NCBI GenBank assembly: GCA_963772995.1
Contig: CAVYZQ010000013.1
Span: forward strand, 78,866 to 142,865
DNA length: 64,000 bases
Direction: 5' to 3'
Source: an uncultured Chloroflexia bacterium
Lineage (GTDB): Bacteria > Chloroflexota > Limnocylindria > Limnocylindrales > CSP1-4
The translations under genes and the position numbers were made by a program. This document shows positions 1 to 58,676 of the stretch, one piece after another. Numbering within the stretch: the stretch's first letter is position 1; each line of letters starts with the position of its first letter. The notes under the pieces were generated by a model. It searched no databases, had not been told where the DNA came from, and saw only the letters and a program-made list of their open reading frames with translations.

Positions 1-3000
1 CCTGATCGTCTTTGGTCCAGGGGTGGCATACGGGTGGCTGCCGCTGCAGACTCCGGCCGCGACGATCCCGGCGGACGATGTGCCGTCGCCCCACGCGATC
101 GAGCATGTGTGCGAATCGTTCGACCCTGCGTCGGTGAGTCTTGCCGACACGGTGAGGGTGGCGGAGGTTCTGGCGCCGTCGGCCGGGCTGGTGATGTCGA
201 CCGTCGGCGGGGCGTTGGCGATGACGAGGTCGACCGACTCCGAGACCGGCGGGTTGACCCCGTCGTCGGCGGTCAGGGTCAGGCCGGACGGTGCCGTCGT
301 CGGTGCAGCTGATGGTCGTGTCGAGGGCGTGGACGTCACCGAACGCGCAGGCCATCCCGGCGTCGGTCCCGGCGCCCGGGGTGTACGCCCAGGTCTGGGT
401 CAGCGTGTCGGTCGCGGGCTCGTTGACGATCGTGCCGTGGAGCGCGATGGCGCTGCCCTCGCCCCCGGCCGGCGACGGGTAGGTGCCGGGGTCGGGATCG
501 GGCGGCGGGTTGGGCGTGCCGCTGACGTCGATGGTGACGGTGTCGATGGCGCTGCCGCCGTCGTCGTCGGTGACGGTCACGGTGATCGTCCGGAGACCGG
601 CCGCGAGGTAGGTGTGGTCGGCGCTGCAGGCGCCGCCCGCGATGACGCCGCTCGAGGCCGGTGCCCCGTCGCCCCAGTCGACGGTGCAGGCGAGGCTGTC
701 GTTGGCACCCGGGTCGCCGACCGCCGCCGACAGGCCGAGGCTCGTCCCGGCCGCGACGCTCGCGCCGTCGGCCGGGCTGGTGATGTCGACCGTCGGCGGG
801 GCGTTGGCGATGACGAGGTCGACCGACTCCGGGACCGGCGGGTTGACCCCGTCGTCGGCGGTCAGGGTCAGGCCGGACGGTGCCGTCGTCGGTGCAGCTG
901 ATGGTCGTGTCGAGGGCGTGGACGTCACCGAACGCGCAGGCCATCCCGGCGTCGGTCCCGACGCCCGGGGTGTACGCCCAGGTCTGGGTCAGCGTGTCGG
1001 TCGCGGGCTCGTTGACGATCGTGCCGTGGAGCGCGATGGCGCTGCCCTCGCCCCCGGCCGGCGACGGGTAGGTGCCGGGGTCGGGATCGGGCGGCGGGTT
1101 GGGCGTGCCGCTGACGTCGATGGTGACGGTGTCGATGGCGCTGCCGCCGTCGTCGTCGGTGACGGTCACGGTGATCGTCCGGAGACCGGCCGCGAGGTAG
1201 GTGTGGTCGGCGCGTGCAGGCGCCGCCCGCGATGACGCCGCTCGAGGCCGGTGCCCCGTCGCCCCAGTCGACGGTGCAGGCGAGGCTGTCGTTGGCACCC
1301 GGGTCGCCGACCGCCGCCGACAGGCCGAGGCTCGTCCCGGCCGCGACGCTCGCGCCGTCGGCCGGGCTGGTGATGTCGACCGTCGGCGGGGCGTTGGCGA
1401 TGACGAGGTCGACCGAGTCCGAGACCGGCGGGTTGACCCCGTCGTCGGCGGTCAGGGTCAGCCGTGACGGTGCCGTCGTCGGTGCAGGCTGATGGTCGTG
1501 TCGAGGGCGTGGACGTCACCGAACGCGCAGGTCATCCCGGCGTCGGTCCCGACGCCCGGGGTGTACGCCCAGGTCTGGGTGAGCGATGTCGGTCGCGGGC
1601 TCGTTCGACGACGTGCCGTGGAGCGCGATGGGCGCTGCCCTCGCCCCCGGCCGGCGACAGGTAGGTGCCGGGGTCGGGATCGGGCGGCGGGTTGAGCGGC
1701 CGCCGACGGGAACGTCGACCCTCGGCGATGTTCGAGTCGAGGTGGCCGTCCGTTGACCCGGAACGTGAAGCTGTCGCTGACGGACATCGCGGTGTAGTCG
1801 ACGGTCGCGATGCAGGTGACGCCATCGCCCACGGACGGTGCACGATGCCGTTCCGAGCGGGCCGAGACTGCCGACGCCGGGCAGGTCGACGATCGCGAAT
1901 GTCAGGTTCGGACCGTCGACGTCGGTCGCGGTCAGCGTGATGGTCCGCGTCGTCCCGGCAGGGACCTCCGGCGCCACGACCTGTGCGACCGCGACCGGCG
2001 GATCGTTGACCGGCGTGACCACGATCGCGACGTTGGCCGAAGCCTCCTGCGTCCCGTCGCTGATCGTGTACGTGAAGCCGTCGGTCCCGTAGAAATCGTG
2101 GTCAGGCTGATAGAGGACCGTGTCGTCGGTGGGGTCGCCGGGCGTCCCGGCGTCATCGATCGATGCCGTGCCGTGGTCGGGATCGGACACCCGGACGATG
2201 GACAGCGTTGCGACGCCATCGGGATCGCGTGTCGTTGTCGAGGACGTCGATCCGGGTCGGATCCGCGTCCTCCGCGAGGGTCGCCTGGTCGTCGATCGCC
2301 GTGGGCGTGCCGACATGCTGCTGGAGCACGCTCGAGGTCGAGCCCGTGAACGATGCGTCCCCGTTGTAGCGGGCCGTGATGTCGTGGACGCCGGCCGTCA
2401 ATGTCGAGGTCGCAAGGGTCGCGCTTCCGCCATTGAGCGTCGCGCTGCCGAGCTCGGTCGTCCCGTCGAGGAACGTCACGGTGCCGCCCGGAATGCCAGC
2501 CGAGGATTCGACGGGTGCGACCGTGGCTGTGAACGTCACCGCCGCACCGACAGCCGACGGAGTCGACGTCGGAGGTCACAGCCGTCGTCGTCGCGGCGCT
2601 GGTCACGACCTGGGTGAGCATCGGTGAGGTGCCGGTCGAGCCGGCAAGGCCGTCGCTTCCGACGAAGGAGGCGACCATCGGATGGCTGCCCGCGGCGAGA
2701 GCATCGGTCGTGAGGCGTGCGGTCCCGAAGGTGAGCGGGACGGTGCCGATCGAGGTGCCGTCGTCGAGGAAGGTCACCTGGCCGGTCGGCAGCCCGAGCC
2801 CGGGGGCTGACACCGTGGCCGTGAAGGTCACGGGCTGCCCGTGCGATGACGGGTTGGGCGTCGACCGCAGCCCGACGACCAGCAGGACTTCGTCGAGGCC
2901 GATGTGCACGGTCGCCGTGTCGTCGCCGCCGTGGCCGTCGACGATCTTGTAGTCGAACGAGTCATTCGCGGCCGGACCTGGTGACCGCGTGTAGATGCAA

Positions 3001-6000: not shown

Positions 6001-9000
6001 TCACGTCGATGGCCGTGTCGCCGGTGCCGTGGGCTTCGCCGATGTCGTCGAGCGCCACCGGGGGGCGGTTGACTGCCACCGTGACCGTGACGCTCGCCCT
6101 CGCGCTCCCTCCATGACCATCGTCGATCTGGTAGTCGAAGCTGTCGCCGCCGGTGAACCCGGCGTCAGGGGTGTAGGAGCACGTCGTCCCCACAGGAGAC
6201 CTGGCCGTGGGCCGCGAACGGGGAGACCGGGACCGCCGTCAGCTTGTCGCCATCCGGGTCGCGGTCGTTGAACAACACGTCGATCGACTGCGATGCGGTC
6301 CCGTGCGCGACGGCGGTGTCATTTTCGGCTGTCGGCGCGCCGTTCTCGAACACCCGGATGAAGACCGTGGCCCGCGCGGTGCCCCCGTGACCGTCACCGA
6401 CGGTGTAGGTGAACTCGTCGGTGTAGGTCGGTTCGCCGACGGCGTGTAGGTGCAGTCGCCCGGGCCGCAGTGGACCCGACCGCCACGGTCGTCGAACGAG
6501 ATGATCGGTCAGCGGATCGTCGTCGATGTCGGTGTCGTTGCGCAGGACATGGATCGTGACCGCGCCGGTCCCGTGGGTCGCGCCCCCGATCGTCGACGGC
6601 ATACGGCCGGTGGTTCGGCTCGGCGTTGACGACGATCGTGAAGGTCTGGGAATCGGACGCGGACCCGTCGGACACGGAGACCTCGATGTCCGGGTACGAG
6701 CCCGCGTCGCCGTCTGTCGGCGTGATCGTCAGGTAGCCGGTGCCGTCGCCGTTGTCGTGCGGTACAGCGAACGCCGGCAGCCGCGCCGACCCGAAGGTGA
6801 GCGTGTCTGGGTCGGCGTCGGTCGCGCTCAAGGGCACGACGCGGGACTCTCCGACCTGCATGAACAGGTCGGCGATCGGCGCCAGGACCGGAGGATGGTT
6901 CACGTCATCGTTGGTGATGGTGCCGCTCCCCTGGCCGTCGCCGAGCGTGGCGTTGACCGGCGCGGTCAGATCGACCGTGAACTCCTCGTCTTGCTCGATC
7001 TTCGTGTCCCCGTTGACAGAGACAGTGACGGTCTGGCTGAGCGGACCGCCGGGAGTGAACGACAGGTCGCCGCTGGCGGCGAGGTAGTCGTGGTCGGCAA
7101 GGGTCGCCGAACCGTCGTGAGTCGCCCAGTGGACCGTGACCGGGTCGGCGGCGGCATGGTCGAGGCTGACCGTGAAGGTGAACGGCGTGGTCCCGCCATC
7201 GCCCTCGGGATGGGCCTGATCGTCGATCGAGACGGTCGGCGGTGGCGGCGGAACGTCCTTGATCGTGATCGTTCACGGTGTCGCTGCCCGGGCCGCCGTC
7301 GTCATCGGTCGCGGTGACCTCGATGGTGTAGTCGAAGGCGGCCGCGTAGGCGTGGCTGCCGTTGCAGATGCCGGCGTCGACGGTGCCTGTCGTGGTGGTC
7401 CCGTCGCCCCAGGCGATGGCGCAGCTCTCGCTGTCGTTCGTCCCGGGATCGGTGATCGTGGCCGAAACGTCGACTGTGGTCCCCGACGAGGAACTCGCGC
7501 CGTCCGCCGGCGCCGCGATGTCGACGTGCGGGTCGCGGTTGGCCAGGACGAGCGTCAGCGGGTCACTGACTGGCGGGTTGGTCCCGTCGGCGCGGTGAGC
7601 GTCAGCGTCCAGGTCCCGTCATCCGTACAGGTGACTGTTGTGATCTGCAGCGGTCGCATCGGCGAAGGAACAGACCGCGGAGCGCATCGATGTCCGCGAC
7701 CTGGGCGAAGCTGTCCAGAGCGTGGTGATCGGTTCCGTGTCGGTCGCGCTCCCCGACAACGGCACCGCTGCGCCCTCGCCGACTCCGGCGGGCGCTGTCC
7801 CGGCGTGAACCTCCGGCGGCGGGTTCGTCGTGTTCGTGACCGTGATGCCGACCGAGTCGCTGCCGGTGCCGCCGTCGTCGTCCGTCGCTGTGACGCTGAT
7901 AGTCCTCGGGCCCGGTGCTGCGTACGAATGACTGCCGGCGCACGTTCCGAACGTGACCGTACCCGGTACGGCGGCGCTATCACCCCAGTCGATCGTGCAG
8001 GTGTGGCTGTCGTTGGAACCGGGGTCGTCGATCGTCGCCGAGACGGCGACACTCACGCCGAGGTCGAACGACTGATCTGTCGAGGGCGTCGTCACGGCCA
8101 CTGTGGGGTCGACGTTCGCGACGGTGAGGCTGGTCGTGTCGGTCACGGTCGTGTTGACGCCGTCCGACACGAAGATCGTCAGGAGGTACGTGCCATCATC
8201 GGTGCAGGTGACCTCGGGATCCGCCGAGCCCGACGGGAAGAACGAGCAGGACGCTCCCGGGTCTGTGCCCGCGCCGCCGGTTGCGCTCCAGCCGATCGAC
8301 GGAGCGGGATTCTCCGCGTCGGACGCGGCGCCGTCCAGCTGGATCGGGCTGCCCTCGGCGCCAGACGCGGTGGGGCCCGCGTCGGCCATCGGCAGATGGT
8401 CGATCTCGTCGTCGTTGATCCTGACGGTCGTCGTCGCGGGTGTCCCGAGAGTCGCCCCACCCGCTGGATCGTCCAGTGTGATGGTGAAGTCCTCGGGGCC
8501 CTCCAGGACGGCGTCGGGCAGGATCGCGACGGTGATCGTTCGCGACGTCTCGTCGCCGTCGGGCCAGTCCAACGTGCCGTTTGCGGCCGTGAAGTCCAGG
8601 CCGTCGGTCGCCGAGCCGCTCGCCATCGAGTAGTGGACCGAGACCGCCCCGGTCAGACCGCCGACGCGGTCAACTTCGATCGCGACTGAGCCGTCGGACT
8701 CGCCGACCGCGTGGAAGCTGGACGTGAAGCGCAACTCGCCGGGTCCCGGCACGTCGTCGTCGTAGATCGTCCCGAAGGCGGAGCCAAAGAAGCCGAACTG
8801 GTAGTCGAAGCCGATGGTGGCGCCGACAGCGTTCGACAGCTGGAGGTACATGGCCTCCAATTCGCCCTCGTCGCGGCTGTCGCCGTGGGTCGTGACGACG
8901 ACGTCCTTGACCTGCTGGCCGGGGGTGAACGTCAGCGTCGTCAACGGGATGGCGTCGTAGTCGCCGTCGGCGACCGTGGCAGCGTTGTCGAACGACTGGA

Positions 9001-37753: not shown

Positions 37754-38698
37754 TCACGTCTGGCGGACCCGCGGATCGATCAGCGCGATGGCGACATCGA
37801 CCAGGATGTTCATGACCACGATGCAGACCGTGGCGAAAAGGACGGTCCCCATCAGAAGCGGCAGGTCCTCCGAGTGAACCGCATCGAGCGCGAGTTTCCC
37901 GATGCCCGGCCACGAGAACACCGCCTCCACGACCACGACCCCGCCCAGCAGCAGGCCGAGATCGAGGCCGATCTGCGTGAGGAGCGGTGGCAGGGCGTTC
38001 GGGAATGCGTGGCGCCAGGCGACTCGACCCTCGGCCGCGCCCTTCGCCCGCGCCGTGCGCGTGTAGTCCTGGTGCAGCTCGTCGAGCAGCACCGTCCGGG
38101 TGATCCGGGCGTAGTAGGCGGCGAGCCCGACCGCCAGGGTCACGGCCGGAAGGAGCAGGTAGCGCAGGTCCCATGGCTTGTACTGGCCGATGGGAAAGAT
38201 CGATAGGCCCCACTGGAGCGCCGGCTGGAAGGCGAAGACGAAGATCAGCATGTAGCCGACCCAGAACGCGGGAGCGGCCACGAGAACGGACGTGCCGATC
38301 AGCCCGAGCCGGTCGGTCTTGCCGCCCGGGTTCCGCGCTGATCGCACCCCGAGCGGGATGCCGATCACGGCCGCCGCGAGGACGCCCGCGATCGCCAGTT
38401 CGAAGGTCGCCGGGACACGCTCGAGAACCATGTCAAGGACGGGGCGGTGCTGCTTGTACGACTCGCCGAAGTCGCCCTGGAGCGCCCGGGCGAGATACCC
38501 GACCATCTGCTCGGGCAGCGGCCGATCCATCCCGAGAGCCTCGCGGATCGCATGGACGGCCGCCGCCGAGGCGTTCCTCCCGGCGATCGCCCTGGCGGGG
38601 TCGCCAGGGGCCACGAACGCGAGGAGGAACGTGAAGATGCCGACGGCGAGGAGGACCAACATCCCCCAGGCGACCCGTCGGACGATGTATGCGACCAC
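37754..38698 (-). CDS. Peptide/nickel ABC transporter permease (DppB-like)
   Basis: [33 protein letters not shown]. Confidence 0.9.
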
Positions 38699-38770
38699 GT
38701 CACGATGATGGTGACCCGAACGCCGCCCGACAAGGGCGGGCGCCCGGGCCGGCGCTGGAGCGCGCGCTCG

Positions 38771-40529
38771 TCACTGGCTGACGGTGACGTTCCGTGCGTC
38801 GATGAAGTAGACCGGATGGAGAGGATTGACGCCACCGACGCGAGTCGATGACATGACGACGGTCTCGTTGAGCACGACCGGGATCCATGGGGCGTCCGCC
38901 ATGATCTTCTTCTGGATGTCCTGGTACATCGACAGGCGAGTCGCATCATCCTGCTCGGCGAGCGCCTTCGCGGACTCCGCGTCGACCTCCTTGTTGCAGT
39001 ACCACGCGGAGTTCGAGCCACCCTTCACCGCGGTGGCGCACGACAGGATCGGGTCGATGAAGTCGGATGGGTCCGGGAAGTCCTGGAACCAGCCGACGTA
39101 CACCAGTGGCGCCTGGTGCGGGGTCTGGATCGTGCCGAGCAGGACGCTGAACTCCTGCTGGACGATGTCGACGGTGATTCCGATCTGGGCGAGGTCCTGC
39201 TGGACCGCTTCGGCCTGCGCTTTGACGGTGTCGTCGGTGTACGTGTAGAGCGTGGTCTTGAATCCGGCCTCGTAACCGGCTTCCTTCATCAGCGCCTTGG
39301 CCTTGTCGACATCATGCGGATATGGATCGCAGGACTTGTCGTAGCCGGGCATGGGCGGCGGCAGGATGCACGTCGCCGGGCCGCCGCGACCGTTCTGGAT
39401 CCGAACCAGGTTGGCCTTGTCCACCGCGTAGTTCATGGCCTGGCGAACCTTGACGTTGGCGAGTGCCTTGTCGGGTCCACTGGTGTCGATGGATACGTAG
39501 AAGGTTGCCACATCGGTCCGGCGCAGGACCCTGTCCTTGAAGTTCGGGTCGTTGACCGCCGCGGTGAAGGACCCGCCCGGGATCGGATCGCTCATCAGGT
39601 CGAGCTGGTTGGCCTCGGTCTGCTGGAGCTGCGTGTTGGCATCGAGCCCGATGCGGATCTCGACGCCGGCGTTGGCGGGTGCGCTGCCCCAGTAGTCCGC
39701 GTTCTGCTCGAACCGGGCGATCGAGCCCTGCTTGTACTCGACCAGGTGGTACGGCCCGGTCCCGATCGGTGCCTTGGCGAACTCCGTCGCATCCAGGGGC
39801 GATTCGGCCGGGATGACCGAGCCGAACATCATGGCCAGGATGTAGGGCAGGCGCTTGTCAGGCTTCGTGAGGGTGATCTCGACCGTCGCGGGATCGGTCG
39901 CCTTGATCCCCGAGGCGGTCTTGGCGGTGCCGCCGAGGACCGCAGCCGAACCATCGATGATGGAGAAGAACGCCGGACCCACCGGTGACGGGTTCGGCTT
40001 CAGGCCCTGGTCGAGGATCCGATTGAGCGACGCGACGACGTCGTTCGCGTTCATCTCCCGGAGCACGGACCCGTCGCCCTTGTAGAACTTCACGCCGGAC
40101 CGGAGGTGGAACGTGTAGGTCCGCCCGTCCGCGGAGACCGTGGGCATCTCCTTGCGCCAGCCCCGGCACGAGCTTGGTGGTGGTGGCGTCGTATTCGACG
40201 AGCTGGTCATAGAGCAGACGGGCGGCCATCCACGACACCGTGTCATAGGCCAGTGCCGGATCGAACCACTGGATGTCGCCCTGCGATCCGATGGACAGGA
40301 TCCCTCCCCCGGATGCGCTGCTCGGACTGGCCGCCACGCTGGCTTCGGCGGAGGCGGACGCCGCGGCCTGCGTGGCCGGCGGGCTCGTCGGCGTGGCAGC
40401 GGATGCGGATGCTGCTGCCGAGCTCGGTGGCGCAGCCGAGGGGCTGGCACTCGTGCATGACCCGACGACGATCGCGAGGCACGTGATGGCGACCACCCAC
40501 CACGGCCCACGGCGGACTGTGCCGTCCAT
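38771..40529 (-). CDS. Family 5 ABC substrate-binding lipoprotein (frameshift near 40155)
   Basis: Lipobox-like VVGSC, Ser/Ala/Pro linker, FDPALAYD, PIGTGPY, VRQAMNYAVD, WFQDFPDP. Confidence 0.9.
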
Positions 40530-40733
40530 CGCTGGACCCTCCTGCCGAACGGCGCCGTTGATGATGGATACGGCCACCGACGCCGATTCGCGCGAACCTA
40601 TCACGGCGTCATCCGGAGTGACCGCTTGCGCGCGGACGATCGCCGGGCGCCACCTGTTTTTGTGGTGCGCTCTGTCAACACCGGACGCATCTCGTGACGA
40701 AGCCGCGAAGATCTCCGCACCCCGCGGCGAACC

Positions 40734-41699
40734 TCAATTTCTCCAGGCGCGCGGGTCGAGGGCGTCGCGGAGCGCGTCGCCCAGGATGTTGAACGCCAGG
40801 ACCGTGAGCGTGATGGCCAGTCCGGGGAGCACGACGAGCCGTGGATCCGTCGCGAACCAGCTGATGTGGTCGGCGAGCATCGTCCCCCACGTGGGAGTCG
40901 GCGGCGGAACACCGGCGCCCAGGTACGACAAGGTCGCCTCGAACAGCACGGTGGCAGCGATCCCCAGCGAGGCGTAGACCACCAGGATCGGCAGGATGTG
41001 TGGCATCACGTGGTCGAGGAAGATCCTCAGGCCGCGACTGCCGAGCGCCCGTGACGCCTCCACGAAGTCGCTGTTCCGCAGGACGAGCGTCCGGCTGTAC
41101 ACGATCCGTGCCGTGGCAGTCCACAGCGTCGTGCCGATGATGATCGTGACGAGGCCGATGCTCGGACCCAGCACGTACGCCATCGTGATCGTCAGGAGCA
41201 GGACCGGGAACGAGAGCCACAGGTCCGTGGACCGCATGAGCAGGCTCTCGACCGGGACCCCGACCGACCGCCCGCCCGGCAGGCCGAGGCGCGCAGAACG
41301 CGACAGCGCCGCCGTTGCCCCGACGAGGAGCCCGAGCACGGTGGCGATCACGTTGGCCCCGATCCCGATGGCGAGCGATGTGCGCGCCCCGTAGACCAGT
41401 CGAGTCCAGTAGTCGCGGCCGAGGCGGTCCAGCCCCAGCGGATGTTGCGGGCTGGGCCCTGCCGGGTCGCCGGTCAGCGGCATCGCGTCCCGGAACTGCT
41501 GGATCGGGTCGTACGGGGTGAGGAGCGGCGCAAGGATGGCAGCGAGCACGATCGCCGCGGCGAGGACGCCACCGACCCAGAACATCGGGTTCCGGCTGAG
41601 GGTCTCCAGGGCTCGCCGGGCGCCACCGACGGGCCGTCGGCCGGCGTCGAGCACCGCCGTCCTCTCGGTCGCGGTGCCGGGCTCGACAAGCTGCGCCAT
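40734..41699 (-). CDS. Peptide ABC transporter permease (DppC-like)
   Basis: HPLGLDRLGRD...YGARTSL, FVEASRALG, EATLSYLG, PTWG, FNILGDALRDALDP. Confidence 0.9.
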   Translation of the reverse strand: MAQLVEPGTATERTAVLDAGRRPVGGARRALETLSRNPMFWVGGVLAAAIVLAAILAPLLTPYDPIQQFRDAMPLTGDPAGPSPQHPLGLDRLGRDYWTRLVYGARTSLAIGIGANVIATVLGLLVGATAALSRSARLGLPGGRSVGVPVESLLMRSTDLWLSFPVLLLTITMAYVLGPSIGLVTIIIGTTLWTATARIVYSRTLVLRNSDFVEASRALGSRGLRIFLDHVMPHILPILVVYASLGIAATVLFEATLSYLGAGVPPPTPTWGTMLADHISWFATDPRLVVLPGLAITLTVLAFNILGDALRDALDPRAWRN

Positions 41700-41754
41700 T
41701 GCACCGCAGCGTATCGGGCGGCGCAAGATGCTTATCGCACACGGCGGCAGGCGA

Positions 41755-41823
41755 CCTGTCCGAAACCCGACACCTCGCCAGTCCGGCACGAGCCACAGGT
41801 GACAAACAGCCGACATGTACGAT
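41755..41823 (+). promoter_or_regulatory. Putative activator site(s) plus -10 box (TACGAT) for the repeat-peptide gene
   Basis: CCTGTCCGAAACCCGACACCTCGCCAGTCCGGCACGAGC matches 43975-44013 at 29/39 positions; -10 box 63 bp downstream. Confidence 0.65.
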
Positions 41824-41852
41824 CGCGGTCCATATCAGCAGAAGGAGATCCG

Positions 41853-42227
41853 ATGGGCGAGCACAAGCCCGGCGAATACAACATGCCGGAAGAGTCGGAC
41901 ACCGAAGGGCAGCTGAAGCGGCGCGACGTCACCGACGAGGGTGGGTCGGGCGGCGGCGAGGATCTCAAGCGGCGCGACATCGTCGACGAGGAGTCGGACA
42001 CCGAAGGCCAGCTGAAGCGGCGCGACATGACCGGCGACGCCCCCTCGAGCGGCGAGGATCTGCGTCGGCGTGACGCGACCGACGACGAGGAATCGGACAC
42101 CGAGGGCCAGCTCAAGCGGCGCGACGTCACCGACGAGGGTGGGTCGAGCGGCGGCGAGGATCTCAGGCGACGCGACATCGTCGACGACGAATCGGACACC
42201 GAGGGCCAGCTGAAGCGGCGCGACTGA
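41853..42227 (+). CDS. 124-aa acidic tandem-repeat protein; putative multi-copy peptide precursor
   Basis: SD GAAGGAG; 4x ESDTEGQLKRRD alternating with 3x GEDL(K/R)RRD; synonymous variation between repeats. Confidence 0.85.
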   Translation: MGEHKPGEYNMPEESDTEGQLKRRDVTDEGGSGGGEDLKRRDIVDEESDTEGQLKRRDMTGDAPSSGEDLRRRDATDDEESDTEGQLKRRDVTDEGGSSGGEDLRRRDIVDDESDTEGQLKRRD

Positions 42228-42238
42228 CGTACACGCCC

Positions 42239-42274
42239 GCGGTGACGCCTCGTCCTCCTCTGGGGCGTCACCGC
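42239..42274 (+). terminator. GC-rich stem-loop after the precursor gene (no U tract; pause or stability element)
   Basis: GCGGTGACGCCTC...GGGGCGTCACCGC, a 13-bp stem. Confidence 0.55.
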
Positions 42275-42303
42275 CACCTCCGCGGTCGGCGGCCGAAGGC
42301 GTC

Positions 42304-43966
42304 GTGCTGACCGCGTATCGTCGCGTCTTCGGAAACCCGTGGCTCGCCCGCTTGATGGCGGGCGAGTTCATCTCGTCCATCGGCGACTGGCTGTACATGG
42401 TCGGCATGCTGATCGTGGTCTACGACCAGTCCGACGATCCGCTGGCGCTCGGGCTGGTCGGGGCGGCACGCATCGCGCCGTACGTCCTCTTCTCGGTGCC
42501 GGCGGGGATCGTCGCGGACCGGTTCGACCGGCGAACTATCCTCCTCACCACCGACATCATCCGCGGCGGCCTGCAGGTCGTCCTTGCGATCCTCGTGCTG
42601 AACGCCGCGCCGACCATCTGGATCGTCGCCGTGGCGATGGTCGCCACGAGCGTGGCGGTCTTCTTCGGACCAGCGATCGGGGCTTATCTCCCCTCGCTCG
42701 TGGACGACGAGGCCGATCTCGGACCGGCGAATAGCGTGTGGGCCACGCTCGACAACCTTGCCTACTTCATCGGGCCGGCCGTCGCCGGTCTACTGATCGC
42801 CGCCGGGGGCCTGGTCGCCTCGTTCATCCTGAATGCGGCCTCCTTCGCCGTCGTCGCGGTGATCCTGGCGACGCTCCCCGCCAAGCGCACGGCAGCCGGC
42901 CCGACCGAGCTCGACTCCCGGGGCGCTGGCGAACGGTCGGGCGCACAGGCGAACGGCCCGCGCTCTGCCGCGGGCGGCTGGGCGACGATCGTCGGCCGGA
43001 TGCCGGCCGTGATGCTCCTCGACGCCGCGACGAGCTTCGTCGGTGGCGGCCTCGGGGTGCTGACGGTCATCGTGGCCGTCAATTCGCTGGGTGTCGGAGA
43101 GGCCGGGACCGGCTACCTCAACGCCGCGATCGGGGTGGGCGGGATCGCGGCCGGGATCGTCGCGGGCTGGGTCGTGCTGCGACGGCTCGACGTCGGGATC
43201 GTCGTGGGCAGCCTCATCTGCGGCGCCGGCCTGATCGCACTGGGCCTCGCGGCGGATCTCCTCCTCGCCTCGGTGGCGATCGCCATCGCGGCCGGCGCAC
43301 AGCTCGTGCTCGACGTGATCAACGCGACGCTGCTCCAGCGAACGGTTCCCGACGGGGAGCGCGGACGAGCGATGGGCGTCCTCCAGATCTCGAGCGCCCT
43401 GACCGCGATCGTCGGCGCATTCGCGGCCCCGCTCCTCGCAGATGCCTACGGCGTCCCGGCGGCGCTGGCGACGATCGCGGTCATCGGGACGGTCGTCGGG
43501 GTGGCCTCGGGGGCATGGCTGCGCTCTGCGGCCCGGCATCCTGCCCACCGCATCCGAGCCGCGCGCCCTGGAGATCCTTCGGGGCAGCGTCTTCGGCGGC
43601 CTGCTTCCGGCCAGGCTCGAGGCGGTCGCGAGGGACCTCGTCCCGGTCGATGTCGCCCAGGGCGAGACGATCATCGAGGAGGGCGACGCCGCGGATCGCT
43701 TCTACTTCGTCGATCGCGGGACGTTCAGGGTCTCGCAACGAGCCGCCGATGGCGGAGTGACCGTCCTGCGGTCGTTGGGTCCGGGTGAGACATTCGGCGA
43801 GATCGGGCTGCTGACGTCGGTGCCGCGAACGGCGACCGTGACGGCCGAGTCGGAGGGACGTCTCTTCGCGCTCGACCGCGCCGGGTTCCTGGGACTCGTC
43901 GATGCCGGGCCGGGCCTGACCACCCAATTGCTCGAGCGATACCGGGCTCTGCCCGTGCGCGCCTAG
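42304..43966 (+). CDS. MFS transporter fused to a C-terminal cyclic-nucleotide-binding domain (frameshift near 43530)
   Basis: GIVADRFDRR motif A and about 12 hydrophobic segments, then IIEEGDAADRFYFVDRG...GETFGEIGLLTSVPRTATV. Confidence 0.85.
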
Positions 43967-43974
43967 ACACAGCG

Positions 43975-44043
43975 CCTGTCCGATACCGGACGCCCGGCGC
44001 GTCCGCCATGGGCTGTAGATTTCCGAGGAAAAGGGCCTAATCT
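43975..44043 (+). promoter_or_regulatory. Second copy of the putative activator site(s) plus -10 box (TAATCT)
   Basis: CCTGTCCGATACCGGACGCCCGGCGCGTCCGCCATGGGC; -10 box 63 bp downstream, as at 41755. Confidence 0.65.
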
Positions 44044-44088
44044 GCCGCATGGTCCCCAGCGCGAGGGATCGATGTGAGGAGAGGTCAC

Positions 44089-44283
44089 ATGAACGCACAG
44101 GACGTGCCCGACGAGCTGCTCGGTCCCGAGACCGAGATCGACGAGACCGCAGGCGACGCCGGCAGGGCGCCGGCGCACCGGAACGTCTCGCCTGCCCCGA
44201 CGGCTGACGACGACACGCAAGGACAGGGCGGCAAGGTCTTCGCCGTCGATCGATCCGACGCAGAGGACGCCGGGCGCCCGTAG
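44089..44283 (+). CDS. 64-aa acidic peptide with a DDDTQGQ motif
   Basis: SD GAGGAGAGG before the ATG; motif resembles ESDTEGQ of the 41853 protein. Confidence 0.7.
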   Translation: MNAQDVPDELLGPETEIDETAGDAGRAPAHRNVSPAPTADDDTQGQGGKVFAVDRSDAEDAGRP

Positions 44284-44401
44284 CCTGTCAGGCCAGCGAG
44301 CGTCACCGGCTGCGCGGCTGCCTCGACCAGCCAGTCACCGGGCCATACACTCCAGCCACGCATCCGGAATCACCGGATCGGCTGGTGAGGTCTCGAACTG
44401 C

Positions 44402-45127
44402 ATGCCCGACCGCGAGGCAGCCGCCCCGGCGTCCGCCCAGGACCGCGCGGTCATCGAGGCCATCTCGCGGTCGCGTCTGTTCCGCGGCGTCGCGATCGAG
44501 GACCTCGCCGTCATCGCCCCGATGCTCCGCGAGCGCCGGTACCGGTCGGGCGAGACGATCTTCCACGAGGGGGACCCGGGCGACGCGATGCACGTCATCG
44601 CCTCGGGTGGGGCGAAGATCTCCATCGCATCCCAGGAAGGCGACGAGGCGATCCTCGCAACCCTCGGCCCGGGAGAGGTATTCGGCGAGCTCGTCCTTCT
44701 CGACGGCGCGCCACGTTCCGCGACGGCGGTGGCGGTCGAGCCGACGGTGACCTATACCCTCCCCCAGACTGCGTTCGGCCCGCTCATCGCCGGGAATGAC
44801 GCGTTCCGGACGGCAGTCCTTCGCAACCTCGCGCTCGAGCTGCGTCGCCTCACCGCGCATGCCTCCGAGCTGCACTTCCTCGACCTCCCGGGCAGGCTGG
44901 CCAGCCGGCTGGCCCGGATGGCGGAGGACGTGGCACCCGGCCAGCCCCTGGAGGTGCACCTCGGCCGCGGCTACACCCAATCGGAGCTGGCGGCGATGAT
45001 CGGGGGCACACGCCAGAGCGTGAATCGGGTGATGTCGGAGCTCGTCTCGGAGGGACTCGTTAGGCTCGAGCCACACGACCTCGTCGTCGTCGACGTCCGT
45101 CGGATGGCCGAACGCGCTCGATGGTGA
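44402..45127 (+). CDS. Crp/Fnr family transcriptional regulator
   Basis: IFHEGDPGD, FGELVLLDGAPRSATA, HTH TQSELAAMIGGTRQSVNR. Confidence 0.93.
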   Translation: MPDREAAAPASAQDRAVIEAISRSRLFRGVAIEDLAVIAPMLRERRYRSGETIFHEGDPGDAMHVIASGGAKISIASQEGDEAILATLGPGEVFGELVLLDGAPRSATAVAVEPTVTYTLPQTAFGPLIAGNDAFRTAVLRNLALELRRLTAHASELHFLDLPGRLASRLARMAEDVAPGQPLEVHLGRGYTQSELAAMIGGTRQSVNRVMSELVSEGLVRLEPHDLVVVDVRRMAERARW

Positions 45128-45936
45128 AGGACGGCCGGCCGCGCGATCTTTCCGCGGACGCGGGCGCACTCCTGCGCCAGGTCGCCCTCCGGAGCGAGAC
45201 CGCGGTGCGCCTCGAGACCGAGGTCGAGATCACCCTCCTGCGCTCGATCGTCGATGCGACCGTCGGCATCTTCGCCGCCGAAGCCGCGTCGATCGCTCTG
45301 CTCGACGAAGCGACAGGCCAGTTGCGGTTCGTGGTGGCGGCGGGCGCCCAGGGCCAGCCGGTGGTCGGCCTCACGATCGGGGCGACGCAGGGTGTCGCGG
45401 GCTACGTGTTCTCGACGGGCGAGAGCATCGCGATGACCGATCCGGTGCAGGACCCGCGTTTCGGCCGCGAGGTGGCGGAGCAGACCGGTTACGTCCCGCG
45501 GTCCATCCTCGCCGTGCCGCTCGAAGACGGGTCGCGGACGATCGGGGTGCTCGAGGTCTTCGACAAGCGCGCCGGCCCGTTCACGATGCAGGACATCGAG
45601 ATCGCCTCGGTCTTCGCCAGGCAGGCCGCGACCGCGATCAAGGTGGCCGCGCGGACACGCCAGGTGCGCTCGATCCTGACCGACGCGCTGCGCGCCGAGG
45701 CCACCACCGAGGGCGACGCGGACGCCGATGCGGCGGTCGCCGAGGTCGTCTCGGTCGCGACCGTGCGGCAGTCCGGCGACGACCGCTTCTGGGCCTTCGT
45801 CGATGCGATCGCGGCGATGCGCCAGGTTTCGGCAGCCGACCGTGATCTCGCGATCGACCTGCTCTCGGTCATCGGCCGCCACCGCGCTCCTGCCACACGC
45901 GAAGCGGCGAGGGGGCTGGGCCGAGCCCGCCGGTGA
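45121..45936 (+). CDS. GAF-domain protein with no recognisable output domain
   Basis: ASIALLDE..LRFVVAAG, GVAGYVF, DPRF..EVAEQTGYVPRSILAVPL, GPFT..D. Confidence 0.85.
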   Translation: MVKDGRPRDLSADAGALLRQVALRSETAVRLETEVEITLLRSIVDATVGIFAAEAASIALLDEATGQLRFVVAAGAQGQPVVGLTIGATQGVAGYVFSTGESIAMTDPVQDPRFGREVAEQTGYVPRSILAVPLEDGSRTIGVLEVFDKRAGPFTMQDIEIASVFARQAATAIKVAARTRQVRSILTDALRAEATTEGDADADAAVAEVVSVATVRQSGDDRFWAFVDAIAAMRQVSAADRDLAIDLLSVIGRHRAPATREAARGLGRARR

Positions 45937-46795
45937 GCGAGGAATCGCTCCCGGCGTGGAGTGAGCCGTTCACCGCCGACCGCCGAGGGGATCTCAGCCG
46001 CCGCGGACCGTTCGCCGACACGGACATGCCCCTCGACTGGCGAGAGGCGGACGGCCGAGGGGTCACGGTGGCGATCATCAATTCGGGCGTCGACGGAGAC
46101 CACCCCGCGGTCGGCGGCCGGCTGGTTCGGAGCCTGCGGGTGGAGCTCTCGCCCGACGACGGCGAGGTCATCGACGACCCGGACGGCGGCGACGTCCTGG
46201 GTCACGGCACGGCCTGCGCGGGGATCATCCATTCGCTGGCACCCGCCGCCGAGATCGTCTCGATCCGCGTCCTCGGTCCCGACAACACGGGCAAGGGACG
46301 AGCCTTCGCCCATGCCCTCGACTGGGTCGTGGAACAGCGGATCCCCGTCGCCAACCTCAGCCTCTCGTCGCGCAGCGAGGCCCTCTACGGGACGTTCCAC
46401 GACCTCGTCGACCAGGCCTATTTCGCCAACTGCCTGCTGGTCTGCTCGGCGAGCAATACGCCGGGGCAGGAGAGCTATCCGTCGCTGTTCTCCTCGGTCG
46501 TGTCGGTCGCCGCGCACGACATCCCGGATCCGACGACGTACTTCTACAACCCGCGATCCGCCCGGTCGAGTTCGGCGCGTGGGGAGTGGCCGTGCCGGTC
46601 GCGTGGAGCCAGCGAGGTTCGATCGTGGCGACCGGCAACAGCTTCGCGGCGCCCCACATCTCGGGCCTTCTTGCGCGCCTCCGCTCGACCTACCCCGATG
46701 CGACCCCGTTCGAAGCGAAGACGATGCTGGCGTTCGGGGCATCCACGCCGATGCGCGATGGGCGACCGGGTCGGCCGGACATCAGCCGGCGGTGA
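45933..46795 (+). CDS. S8 (subtilisin-like) serine peptidase with no signal peptide (frameshift near 46560)
   Basis: VAII(N)SGVD, GHGTACAG, NLSL, TGNSFAAPHISG. Confidence 0.85.
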
Positions 46796-57877: not shown

Positions 57878-58676
57878 TCAGGCGCGGCCAACCTCACGAA
57901 GGACGGCTCGGGCGCCATCGGCGACGAACGCGCCGTCCGAGCCGAGCCCGATGAACCGGAAACCGAGGTCACGGTGCCGCGACGCCGCGGTGGCGTCCCG
58001 GAGAAGGATGCCCGCGGTCTTGCCGGCTCCCTCGGCGGCCGCGACGACGGAGGTGATCGCCTCGAGGTAGCCCGGGTCGGTGAAGCGGCCCGGCATCCCC
58101 AGGGCGTGCGACAGGTCGGTCGGGCCGACGAACAGGACGTCCACGCCATCGATGGCGGCGATCTCCGCGGCGGTCTCGACCGCGCTCCGCGATTCGATCT
58201 GGATGATGCCGAGCACCCGGGCGTTGATCGAGCGGACGTCGCCATGCGCTCGCTCGCCGAGCCCCGCCCCGCGCGTGCCGAGCGCGAGCCCGCGGGCGCC
58301 ATCGGGCGCGTAGCGCATGTACGAGACCGCCTCGCGCGCCTGCTCGGGAGTGTCGACGCGCGGGACCATGATGCCGTGCGCCCCGAGGTCGAGGGCACGA
58401 CCGATGCGCAGCCGCTCCCCGGACGGGGGCGGACGAGGGCGGCGGTCGGCGTGGCTCCGAACGCGTAGAGGTTCGCCAGGAGGTCCGCCTCCGTGCCGGC
58501 GCCGTGCTCGAGGTCGATGATCACCCAGTCGAATCCGGCCCGCGCGACGGTCTCGGTCGCCACCGGTGATGCGAGGTTGAGGAACGTGCCGTAGAGGGTC
58601 TCGCGCGCCGGCGAGGCGGGAGTGGAGGTCGACGAAGACCGGGAGGGGGAGCGGGCCGCTGCGGTTGGTCGGTCAT
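57878..58676 (-). CDS. HpcH/HpaI aldolase family protein (frameshifted)
   Basis: FDWVIIDLEHG, MVPRV, IQIES, VLFVGPTDLS. Confidence 0.87.

Follow-up and report, generated by a model that had tools for sequence, protein, structure and literature searches.

The stretch of DNA analyzed here, referred to as the window, comprises 64,000 nucleotides of contig CAVYZQ010000013.1 (positions 78,866 to 142,865, forward strand) from an uncultured Chloroflexia bacterium whose 4.2-Mb metagenome-assembled genome (MAG) is 63% complete; the window has a G+C content of 70%. The analysis concerns two matching promoter regions that precede two small peptide genes, pep1 and pep2, within a gene cassette on the forward (+) strand. 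The first gene, pep1 (41853..42227), follows a Shine-Dalgarno sequence GGAG at 41844-41847 and codes for an acidic peptide of 124 amino acids with ESDTEGQLKRRD repeat units. It is followed by a gene for an MFS transporter fused to a C-terminal cNMP-binding domain (42304..43966; Pfam MFS_1, MFS_3, and cNMP_binding), and then by pep2 (44089..44283), which codes for an acidic peptide of 64 amino acids with a single DDDTQGQGGKVF unit. Downstream lie the genes for a Crp/Fnr-family regulator with the recognition helix TRQSVNR (44402..45127), the candidate reader of both promoters; for a GAF-domain protein (45121..45936; Pfam GAF), the start of which overlaps the crp stop; and for an S8 subtilisin-like protease without a signal peptide (45933..46795; Pfam Peptidase_S8).

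The regions upstream of pep1 and pep2 share the same promoter architecture; this observation, made in the initial annotation of the window, was confirmed, and all of its coordinates and letters were correct. The segments 41755-41793 and 43975-44013 align without gaps at 29 of 39 positions, and each contains an imperfect 16-bp palindrome, TGTCCGAAACCCGACA at 41757-41772 in the pep1 promoter and TGTCCGATACCGGACG at 43977-43992 in the pep2 promoter, that represents the predicted distal operator (both +). A proximal element, GTCCG, starts 24 bp past the first T of each palindrome (41781-41785 and 44001-44005, +) and would form, in the pep1 promoter, the left half of a second site; in the pep2 promoter it is followed by a T at +37 (44014), counted from the first T of the palindrome. 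Both regions continue with a TAnnnT hexamer at +61 from the palindrome, or +63 from the start of the aligned segments; these hexamers, TACGAT at 41818-41823 and TAATCT at 44038-44043 (+), are the predicted -10 boxes, and the corresponding transcription starts were inferred near 41830 and 44050, respectively. For comparison, pieces of 153 and 122 nt were drawn at random from the same 70% G+C genome; across 3000 such pairs, the best 39-nt segment had a mean of 22.1 identities (standard deviation 1.46), and the single pair that reached 29 was a 39/39 match.

The conserved positions of this architecture emerge from a promoter profile that was built on sites with the core TGT[CG]-N8-[CG]AC[AG] and an open reading frame (ORF) with the peptide motif D-D-[VT]-[EQ]-G-[HQ] 90-400 nt downstream; a GTC element was not required. 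The 110 sites found in this way were reduced to 87 non-redundant promoters at 80% identity. Within the palindrome, the T, G, and T at positions 1-3 and the A and C at positions 14-15 occur in 87/87 promoters, as imposed by the selection pattern; at the positions where the pattern left a choice, C was found at position 4 in 85 of the 87 promoters (C or G allowed), G at position 13 in 86 (C or G allowed), and A at position 16 in 77 (A or G allowed). The GTC at +24..26 was present in 84 promoters without being a selection criterion, and T at +37 in 69. A TAnnnT hexamer started at +59..+62 in 66 promoters and was absent from the entire interval +52 to +72 in 18; the remaining profile positions were close to background composition. 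The ten mismatches between the two copies in the window are located at positions that vary in the relatives, except for those at +15 (A/G) and +11; the offsets that are nearly invariant in the relatives (0-3, 12-14, and 24-26) and the well-conserved +8 are the same in both copies.

The distances within this profile permit a prediction of operator positions. If the -10 box is placed at +60/61 and the transcription start approximately 7 nt beyond, the palindrome centre (+7.5) falls near -65 and a 16-bp site beginning at +23 near -42; the centres proposed earlier for the window are thus recovered from the conserved -10 position, relative to a start site that is predicted only. The T at +37/+38 lies 17 bp ahead of the -10 box, at the place where a -35 hexamer would start. 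No -35/-10 pair of the sigma-70 type was found in 41600-44500, which fits an activator-dependent promoter. With centres near -42 and -65 relative to the conserved -10 box, the layout would resemble that of class II/III promoters, albeit with a predicted start and a proximal half-site only: in the 87-promoter profile the left half GTC of the proximal element is kept, and its right half, GCTT, is unlike GACA, with the consequence that the proximal element would be a half-site at best. In a group of promoters from family f4 (L117, L119, L121, L122, and L136), a TTGC block stands 8 nt before the -10 hexamer, too close for a -35 element.

The form of the palindrome is also informative. Its inner pairs 4-11, 5-10, 6-9, and 7-8 are complementary in 29, 27, 32, and 21 of the 87 promoters, respectively, and none of these counts exceeds those of shuffled columns; the absence of complementary covariation argues for the site of a dimeric protein rather than a hairpin. 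The 5-6-5 form of Crp/Fnr sites that had been suggested for the palindrome is borne out; with its nearly invariant outer TGTC/GACA and inner positions that do not covary, selection has maintained it as the site of a protein.

In the genome that contains the window, the palindrome by itself is not enriched. The pattern TGTCCGNNNNCNGAC had 16 matches, compared to 10 in the backward control; a weight matrix built from 21 sites, with the window and its nearest relative (locus L078) excluded, returned 39 matches of at least 12 bits versus 25 in the reversed genome. In the ranking by this matrix, the pep1 site ties for first place, and the pep2 site is 7th. The full architecture (palindrome, N8, GTC, N31-36, TAnnnT) has two matches in 4.2 Mb, both in the window, versus none in either of the two controls, the reversed and the complement-only genome. 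The initial annotation had named a motif that is common genome-wide in random contexts as grounds for abandoning its proposal; this description fits the loose palindrome, which is not enriched, but not the full architecture with its two sites. The strict peptide motif occurs in six ORFs of this genome, and pep2 is the only one among them with an upstream palindrome; no further regulon members besides the two sites were found in the 63%-complete genome. The sole match to a stricter class pattern, C18:67643, is situated inside long ORFs without a peptide gene and was rejected. A perfect palindrome, TGTCATCTGTATGACA, on contig C4 of the same genome (G000; 58645-58660) ties with the pep1 site for the top weight-matrix score; overlapping long ORFs cover this region, and it is without the GTC/-10 architecture.

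Among close relatives, another 11 loci of the genus contain the cassette in the gene order pep-MFS_cNMP-crp-GAF-S8, and their Crp proteins are 77-81% identical. At all nine loci where the DNA upstream of the pep1 orthologue was available, the window included, this DNA contains TGTC[CG]G-N4-[CT][CG]GACA, followed by GTC 24 bp after the palindrome start and by a -10-like hexamer at +61..+68. Four loci (the window, L037, L077, and L078) have an additional copy of the site, located between exporter gene and crp. In L078, the nearest relative, with a Crp that is 98% identical, the pep2 orthologue (56% identity) stands behind the same 16-mer as pep2 in the window, and the flanks have diverged. In L037, the second full operator between exporter gene and crp (6449-6600) is not associated with a peptide gene; a 7-codon ORF and a G+C-rich hairpin are found instead, and the region may be what is left of a peptide gene, may encode a small RNA, or may serve as a promoter for crp. 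The pep1 orthologues contain 2 to approximately 12 DDDTEGQ repeats.

The linkage of operator and peptide gene extends beyond these relatives. Twelve loci of the same genus contain a more distant cassette (Crp 48-53% identical) in which crp-GAF-S8 is followed by a convergent MFS_cNMP gene and then by a peptide gene; its product, MxKKIxLPKE...DDVEGH...DDVEGHRRH, is present at 12/12 loci, and 11 of them have the site approximately 100 bp upstream of the DDVEGH peptide gene. At 20 loci from other genera of family f1 and from family f4, the order is often MFS_cNMP-crp-[site]-peptide-GAF-S8, and the site directly precedes a DD[VT]EG[HQ] ORF in 15 cases. A survey of 401 genomes from the class found a GAF orthologue in 270, with strong matches in families f1 and f4 only. 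A set of 80 public loci, mostly Chloroflexota or Candidatus Limnocylindria MAGs, was chosen by Crp similarity alone; at least one composite site was found at 71 of these loci, an ORF with the peptide motif at 67, and both, linked on one strand, at 61. In total, these loci contain 104 composite sites versus 2 for the reversed pattern; many of the 36 "unlinked" sites correspond to missed peptide genes, to the opposite strand of the palindrome, or to sites before crp. By family, in tallies that take in unpublished genomes, the composite pattern was found in 94/137 genomes of f1, 107/153 of f4, 0/16 of f2, 3/92 of f3, and 0/2 of f5; the composite motif follows the two cassette-bearing families of Ca. 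Limnocylindria, f1 and f4.

In many relatives the operator reads TGTCGGCTGGCCGACA, and it is not limited to the short peptide genes. Two more kinds of DVEGH proteins occur behind the same operator (L124-L129, L161, L167, L181, and L215; L152, L153, and L203), namely peptides of 60-80 amino acids that end in an ARERDIERRLK-like basic helix, and proteins of approximately 205-220 amino acids with several D[VT][EQ]GH units. Far from the cassette, TGTCGGCTGGCCGACA together with the GTC element is located approximately 210 bp upstream of a gene for a SARP/BTAD-like regulator of approximately 268 amino acids (L217-L224 and L226); the operator precedes this gene at 8 of 10 loci inspected, which suggests a regulatory cascade in the relatives. 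The SARP orthologue was not found in the 63%-complete genome of the window. Finally, the composite operators at loci of genus g5 (L225 and L227-L230) have no GAF cassette beside them; the sequence behind these operators is conserved, would give EAPAGRDRRGF in different loci, and has no clear gene start. Rfam gave no family match downstream of the g5 sites, and the region may represent an unannotated small gene or RNA.

The protein encoded at 44402 is the sole cassette protein with a DNA-binding domain recognised by Pfam (PF13545 HTH_Crp_2, 48.8 bits, cut-off 27); its nucleotide-binding domain scores 90.3 bits (PF00027 cNMP_binding, cut-off 27.5). Its closest solved relatives are GlxR of Corynebacterium and the CRP of M. 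tuberculosis (E ~1e-36), and its sequence FGELvlldgapRSATA aligns with the phosphate-binding cassette of both; in seven Crp orthologues from across the class, the F, G, E, and S of this pocket are invariant, and the R is kept in 6/7. The recognition helix RQsvnR aligns to REtvnK of GlxR and M. tuberculosis CRP, so that Gln replaces Glu; the R, Q, V, and N of the helix, this Gln included, are invariant in all seven orthologues, and the Gln also recurs in the type A and type B loci that were matched. In the published account of M. tuberculosis CRP (PMC5758884), Glu189 contacts 4G/13C of the operator. Cmr is described as having Pro in place of that Glu, as preferring 4C/13G, and as binding TGTCA-N6-(C/T)GACA, a motif termed "nearly identical" to that of CooA (PMC4705688, PMC5758884), for which the operator consensus is given as TGTCGGCnnGCCGACA (PMC545781). 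Judged by its sequence, the operator upstream of pep1 and pep2 belongs to this Cmr/CooA class of 4C/13G specificity, in a predicted tandem arrangement. Covariation between the Crp helix and the operator was considered and was not used as evidence, since the helix is invariant. The window's clade typically combines TGTCC (C at position 5) in the operator with NRV in place of NRL in the Crp; as a single event in a single clade, this pairing was likewise not used. A literature search on Crp in Limnocylindria found nothing.

Taken together, the two regions are best read as two copies of one activator-dependent promoter for pep1 and pep2 that is most likely read by the Crp encoded at 44402, an explanation that we consider better than even. 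Its components differ in strength: that the element is a functional, conserved promoter-operator is highly probable; that a protein of the Crp family reads this operator is likely; and that the Crp at 44402 is this reader and activates both promoters is somewhat probable. The grouping of pep1 and pep2 in one regulon, as proposed in the initial annotation, is well supported by the comparative data; both peptides carry D-T-[EQ]-G-Q, and the same promoter stands ahead of such genes beside a Crp orthologue in two families. In the mechanism that we envision, a Crp dimer with bound cyclic nucleotide would occupy the distal TGTC-N8-GACA palindrome near -65 and would help a second Crp dimer onto the proximal (T)GTC(G/C) half-site near -42, 23 bp downstream; this half-site would lie beside a weak -35 (TT at +37/38 in the relatives), followed by the TAnnnT -10 box. 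In the manner of CRP promoters with tandem sites (class III-like), both dimers would then recruit RNA polymerase to a promoter that offers no usable -35. Since the pep2 promoter is located upstream of crp-GAF-S8, read-through from it would extend into these genes and give positive feedback. The assignment to the local Crp is favored by the linkage of Crp, operator, and peptide gene, which has been kept through three gene orders.

Several observations weigh against this explanation, or against parts of it. Textbook positions for CRP at class I promoters are -61.5 and -71.5, and a centre near -65 matches neither. Judged by the palindrome alone, the pep2 site, 7th in its genome, scores below the best control matches; the proximal element, of which the left half alone is kept, may be no Crp site. 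The Crp at 44402 scores 73.1 bits against NCBIfam NF008732, the CRP equivalog model with a cut-off of 266, and its sequence identifies it as a Crp/Fnr family member that is no orthologue of enterobacterial CRP. The genome of the window also encodes a paralogous Crp on contig C7 (G000 C7:143447-144121), 49% identical and with a TRQSVN helix as well. Of 14 genomes from genus g5, 13 contain the composite site, whereas a GAF orthologue was found in one; the five g5 genomes that were checked have one strong Crp homologue each, far from the sites, with the helix TRQSVNK in the two loci read. The motif, it follows from these g5 sites, does not need the Crp of the cassette; it would be the recognition sequence of the whole Crp clade, and either paralogue may act at the promoters of pep1 and pep2.

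The last of these points lead to a different assignment, in which the operator and promoter are real, the paralogue on contig C7, perhaps a "housekeeping" regulator, is their main reader or an additional one, and the Crp of the cassette shares the sites or acts elsewhere. We regard this as rather unlikely, even though the paralogue has a TRQSVNK recognition helix, the g5 genomes maintain composite sites, with a single strong Crp homologue at a distance in the five checked (TRQSVNK in the two loci read), and the operator at the SARP-like gene lies outside the cassette; in another genome, G010, a composite site (C8:468512) is found approximately 60 bp from the gene of the paralogue itself (C8:467778-468449). 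Yet the operator-bearing peptide genes remain next to the cassette crp in three gene orders and two families, the usual signature of a local regulator, and in the genome of the window no site was found upstream of the C7 paralogue, whereas both full architectures fall within the cassette. A separate question is whether the proximal GTC at +24 and the T at +37 belong to Crp at all, or to another factor or the polymerase, such that the promoter would be co-dependent rather than a tandem Crp promoter; the candidates would be a SARP-type activator that binds repeats over the -35 region, or an unusual -35 or UP-like element. The missing right half-site of the proximal element would be accommodated in this way, as would the direct repeat of TGTC at 0 and +23, about two helical turns apart, the resemblance of T at +37/+38, 17 bp before the -10 box, to the start of a -35 hexamer, the TTGC block 8 nt before the -10 box in f4, and the operator that a SARP-like regulator gene carries in the relatives. 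Nonetheless, the palindrome and the left side of the proximal element share one half-site, (T)GTC(G), the cassette encodes no second DNA-binding protein recognised by Pfam, and a SARP orthologue is missing from the 63%-complete genome; this arrangement is considered improbable.

Very improbable, and the least credible of all, is the lack of any regulatory role: the similarity would be left over from the recent duplication of a peptide gene together with the DNA before it, or the palindrome would be a hairpin (a terminator or an RNA element). The genes pep1 and pep2 are related, hence a duplication must have occurred at some time, and the exporter gene's stop codon precedes the pep2 site by 10 bp, which would be a possible location for a terminator. 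Against a relic, the same positions have been kept in 87 non-redundant promoters from two families while the flanks were randomised, and the mismatches between the two window copies fall on variable positions; against a hairpin, the palindrome has no base-pair covariation, no T-tract after it, and no Rfam family. By these comparative data the duplication relic and the hairpin are already contradicted. The GAF protein was considered as a rival DNA binder; Pfam shows the GAF domain alone, and no fold search was made. AlphaFold modelled the GAF domain with confidence and the C-terminal ~75 residues with low confidence, at a pLDDT under 50 for residues 206-271. A complex prediction for Crp and the GAF protein, with a score of zero, was weighed neither way.

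Compared to characterized regulators, the system resembles Cmr (Rv1675c) of the M. tuberculosis complex in its 16-bp palindrome with 4C/13G, in the replacement of the CRP Glu, and in an operator that is also found near the gene of the regulator itself, as Cmr is portrayed in PMC4705688 and PMC5758884. In contrast to the Gln of the cassette Crp, Cmr has a Pro at the Glu position; Cmr also has an Arg-rich loop, and it binds hundreds of sites, whereas the full architecture here is found at few promoters per genome. Moreover, GlxR and M. tuberculosis CRP are the solved chains closest in sequence to the cassette Crp. The operator of many relatives, TGTCGGCTGGCCGACA, fits the CooA consensus letter for letter, in the form in which PMC545781 reports it. 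Unlike CooA, a haem-based carbon monoxide (CO) sensor without a nucleotide pocket, the cassette Crp has retained a phosphate-binding cassette (FGE...RSA); its 60 best matches among solved proteins do not include CooA, and its predicted targets are peptide genes and not CO dehydrogenase. The recognition helix of CooA opens with Arg-Gln, and CooA activates from approximately -43.5. At class II/III promoters of E. coli CRP, a proximal site near -41.5 covers a missing -35, and an additional site lies upstream. The promoters of pep1 and pep2 share with them the 5-6-5 palindrome, the predicted proximal and upstream sites, and a probable activator dependence, with the reservation that all positions here are predicted; they differ by TGTC in place of TGTG, by a proximal element that is only a half-site, and by the non-classical centre near -65 and the 23-bp spacing. 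In summary of these comparisons, the element would be a Crp/Fnr operator with the specificity of the Cmr/CooA class that serves a conserved, undescribed peptide cassette in an uncultured class.

The surrounding genes resemble peptide maturation and export systems in some respects. An S8 protease without a signal peptide, adjacent to small-peptide genes and an exporter, recalls the QhpE-type subtilisins; QhpE, the nearest NCBIfam model for the protease, describes a subtilisin of the cytoplasm that trims a peptide ahead of its export. The cyclic-nucleotide domain that is joined to the exporter recalls the cNMP-domain proteins of bacteriocin export. The corresponding NCBIfam models, NF049966 and TIGR03896, scored well under their cut-offs (83 versus 165 bits and 31 versus 161, respectively), and unlike QhpE- or bacteriocin-type systems the cassette has no modifying enzyme, its exporter is of the MFS and not the ATP-binding cassette (ABC) type, and its peptide family has no model. 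In a comparison with ribosomally synthesized and post-translationally modified peptides (RiPPs) and quorum peptides, judged by genes alone, a protease and an exporter are present, a modifying enzyme (radical-SAM or other) was not found in the cassette, and the peptides belong to no family. Neither Pfam, NCBIfam, nor PADLOC returned a family match for pep1 or pep2; the 22 peptide homologues in metagenomes are all annotated merely as "hypothetical protein," and the Atlas contained "hypothetical" clusters only, at 0.86. A full-text literature search for "DVEGH" returned nothing bacterial, and no literature on these peptides was found. Known anti-phage defence systems, Pycsar included, were not matched, with weak PADLOC hits only (the cNMP domain at 23-37 bits, and a generic subtilase at 67), and no cyclase was found in the cassette by Pfam and PADLOC.

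On this basis it is conceivable, as a tentative and rather doubtful extension, that the promoter controls a so far undescribed, cyclic-nucleotide-gated circuit for peptide production and export that is conserved across Ca. Limnocylindria. In such a circuit, Crp with its nucleotide would switch on the multi-copy D-D-[VT]-E-G-[HQ] precursor genes; the cytoplasmic S8 protease would cut the precursors into units; the MFS pump, whose own cNMP domain would sense the same messenger, would export them; and the GAF protein would tune the loop, with read-through into crp as positive feedback. Processing and export of the peptides would make the cassette a new peptide system under cyclic-nucleotide control; should the circuit exist as outlined, its product in this uncultured soil lineage would be a new type of secreted signalling peptide or else a peptide that binds metal. 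Ca. Limnocylindria are abundant Chloroflexota of soil and freshwater; to our knowledge, they have no cultured member, and their gene regulation is almost unstudied. For this group, the present comparison supplies a promoter and operator model to which 87 independent examples lend support, a candidate regulator whose specificity can be predicted (Gln in place of Glu, TGTC in place of TGTG), and a small regulon of repeat peptides, to which a SARP-like regulator is added in the relatives. It would also provide an independent case for the Cmr/CooA rule, according to which the residue at the Glu181 position of CRP sets operator bases 4 and 13.

Further features of the locus concern individual genes of the cassette. 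Between pep1 and the exporter gene, a stem-loop (42239..42274, +) with a 14-bp G+C-rich stem and no T tail is a possible terminator or attenuator; the RNA fold of 42228-42303 has -40.1 kcal/mol, and the only Rfam result was a sub-threshold CcsR1 match at 42237-42273 that overlaps the stem-loop. The MFS-cNMP gene changes from frame 1 to frame 2 at 43520-43524 (break within 43509-43524), and the gene of a relative has a single frame of 548 amino acids; the S8 protease gene has a frame break near 46556-46562. Sequence on either side of both breaks is conserved, and the breaks are probably assembly errors rather than signs of pseudogenes, because the one at 43520 adjoins a run of five G.

The GAF gene adjoins crp in every locus compared. 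A TACACT hexamer at 44346..44351 (+), within a CCATACACTC block at 44340-44355, is the likely -10 of a promoter of crp itself; the block is located approximately 50-100 bp upstream of crp in all five orthologous loci compared, including L037-L040 (approximately 50 bp in the window), and probably constitutes crp's own -10 region, distinct from the peptide promoters. Outside the cassette, an operon for an Opp/Dpp-type peptide ABC importer (37754-41699) diverges from pep1 in the window; in the relatives L037-L039, L085, and L087, the position of this operon next to the cassette is occupied by a methylated-DNA-protein-cysteine methyltransferase-like gene.

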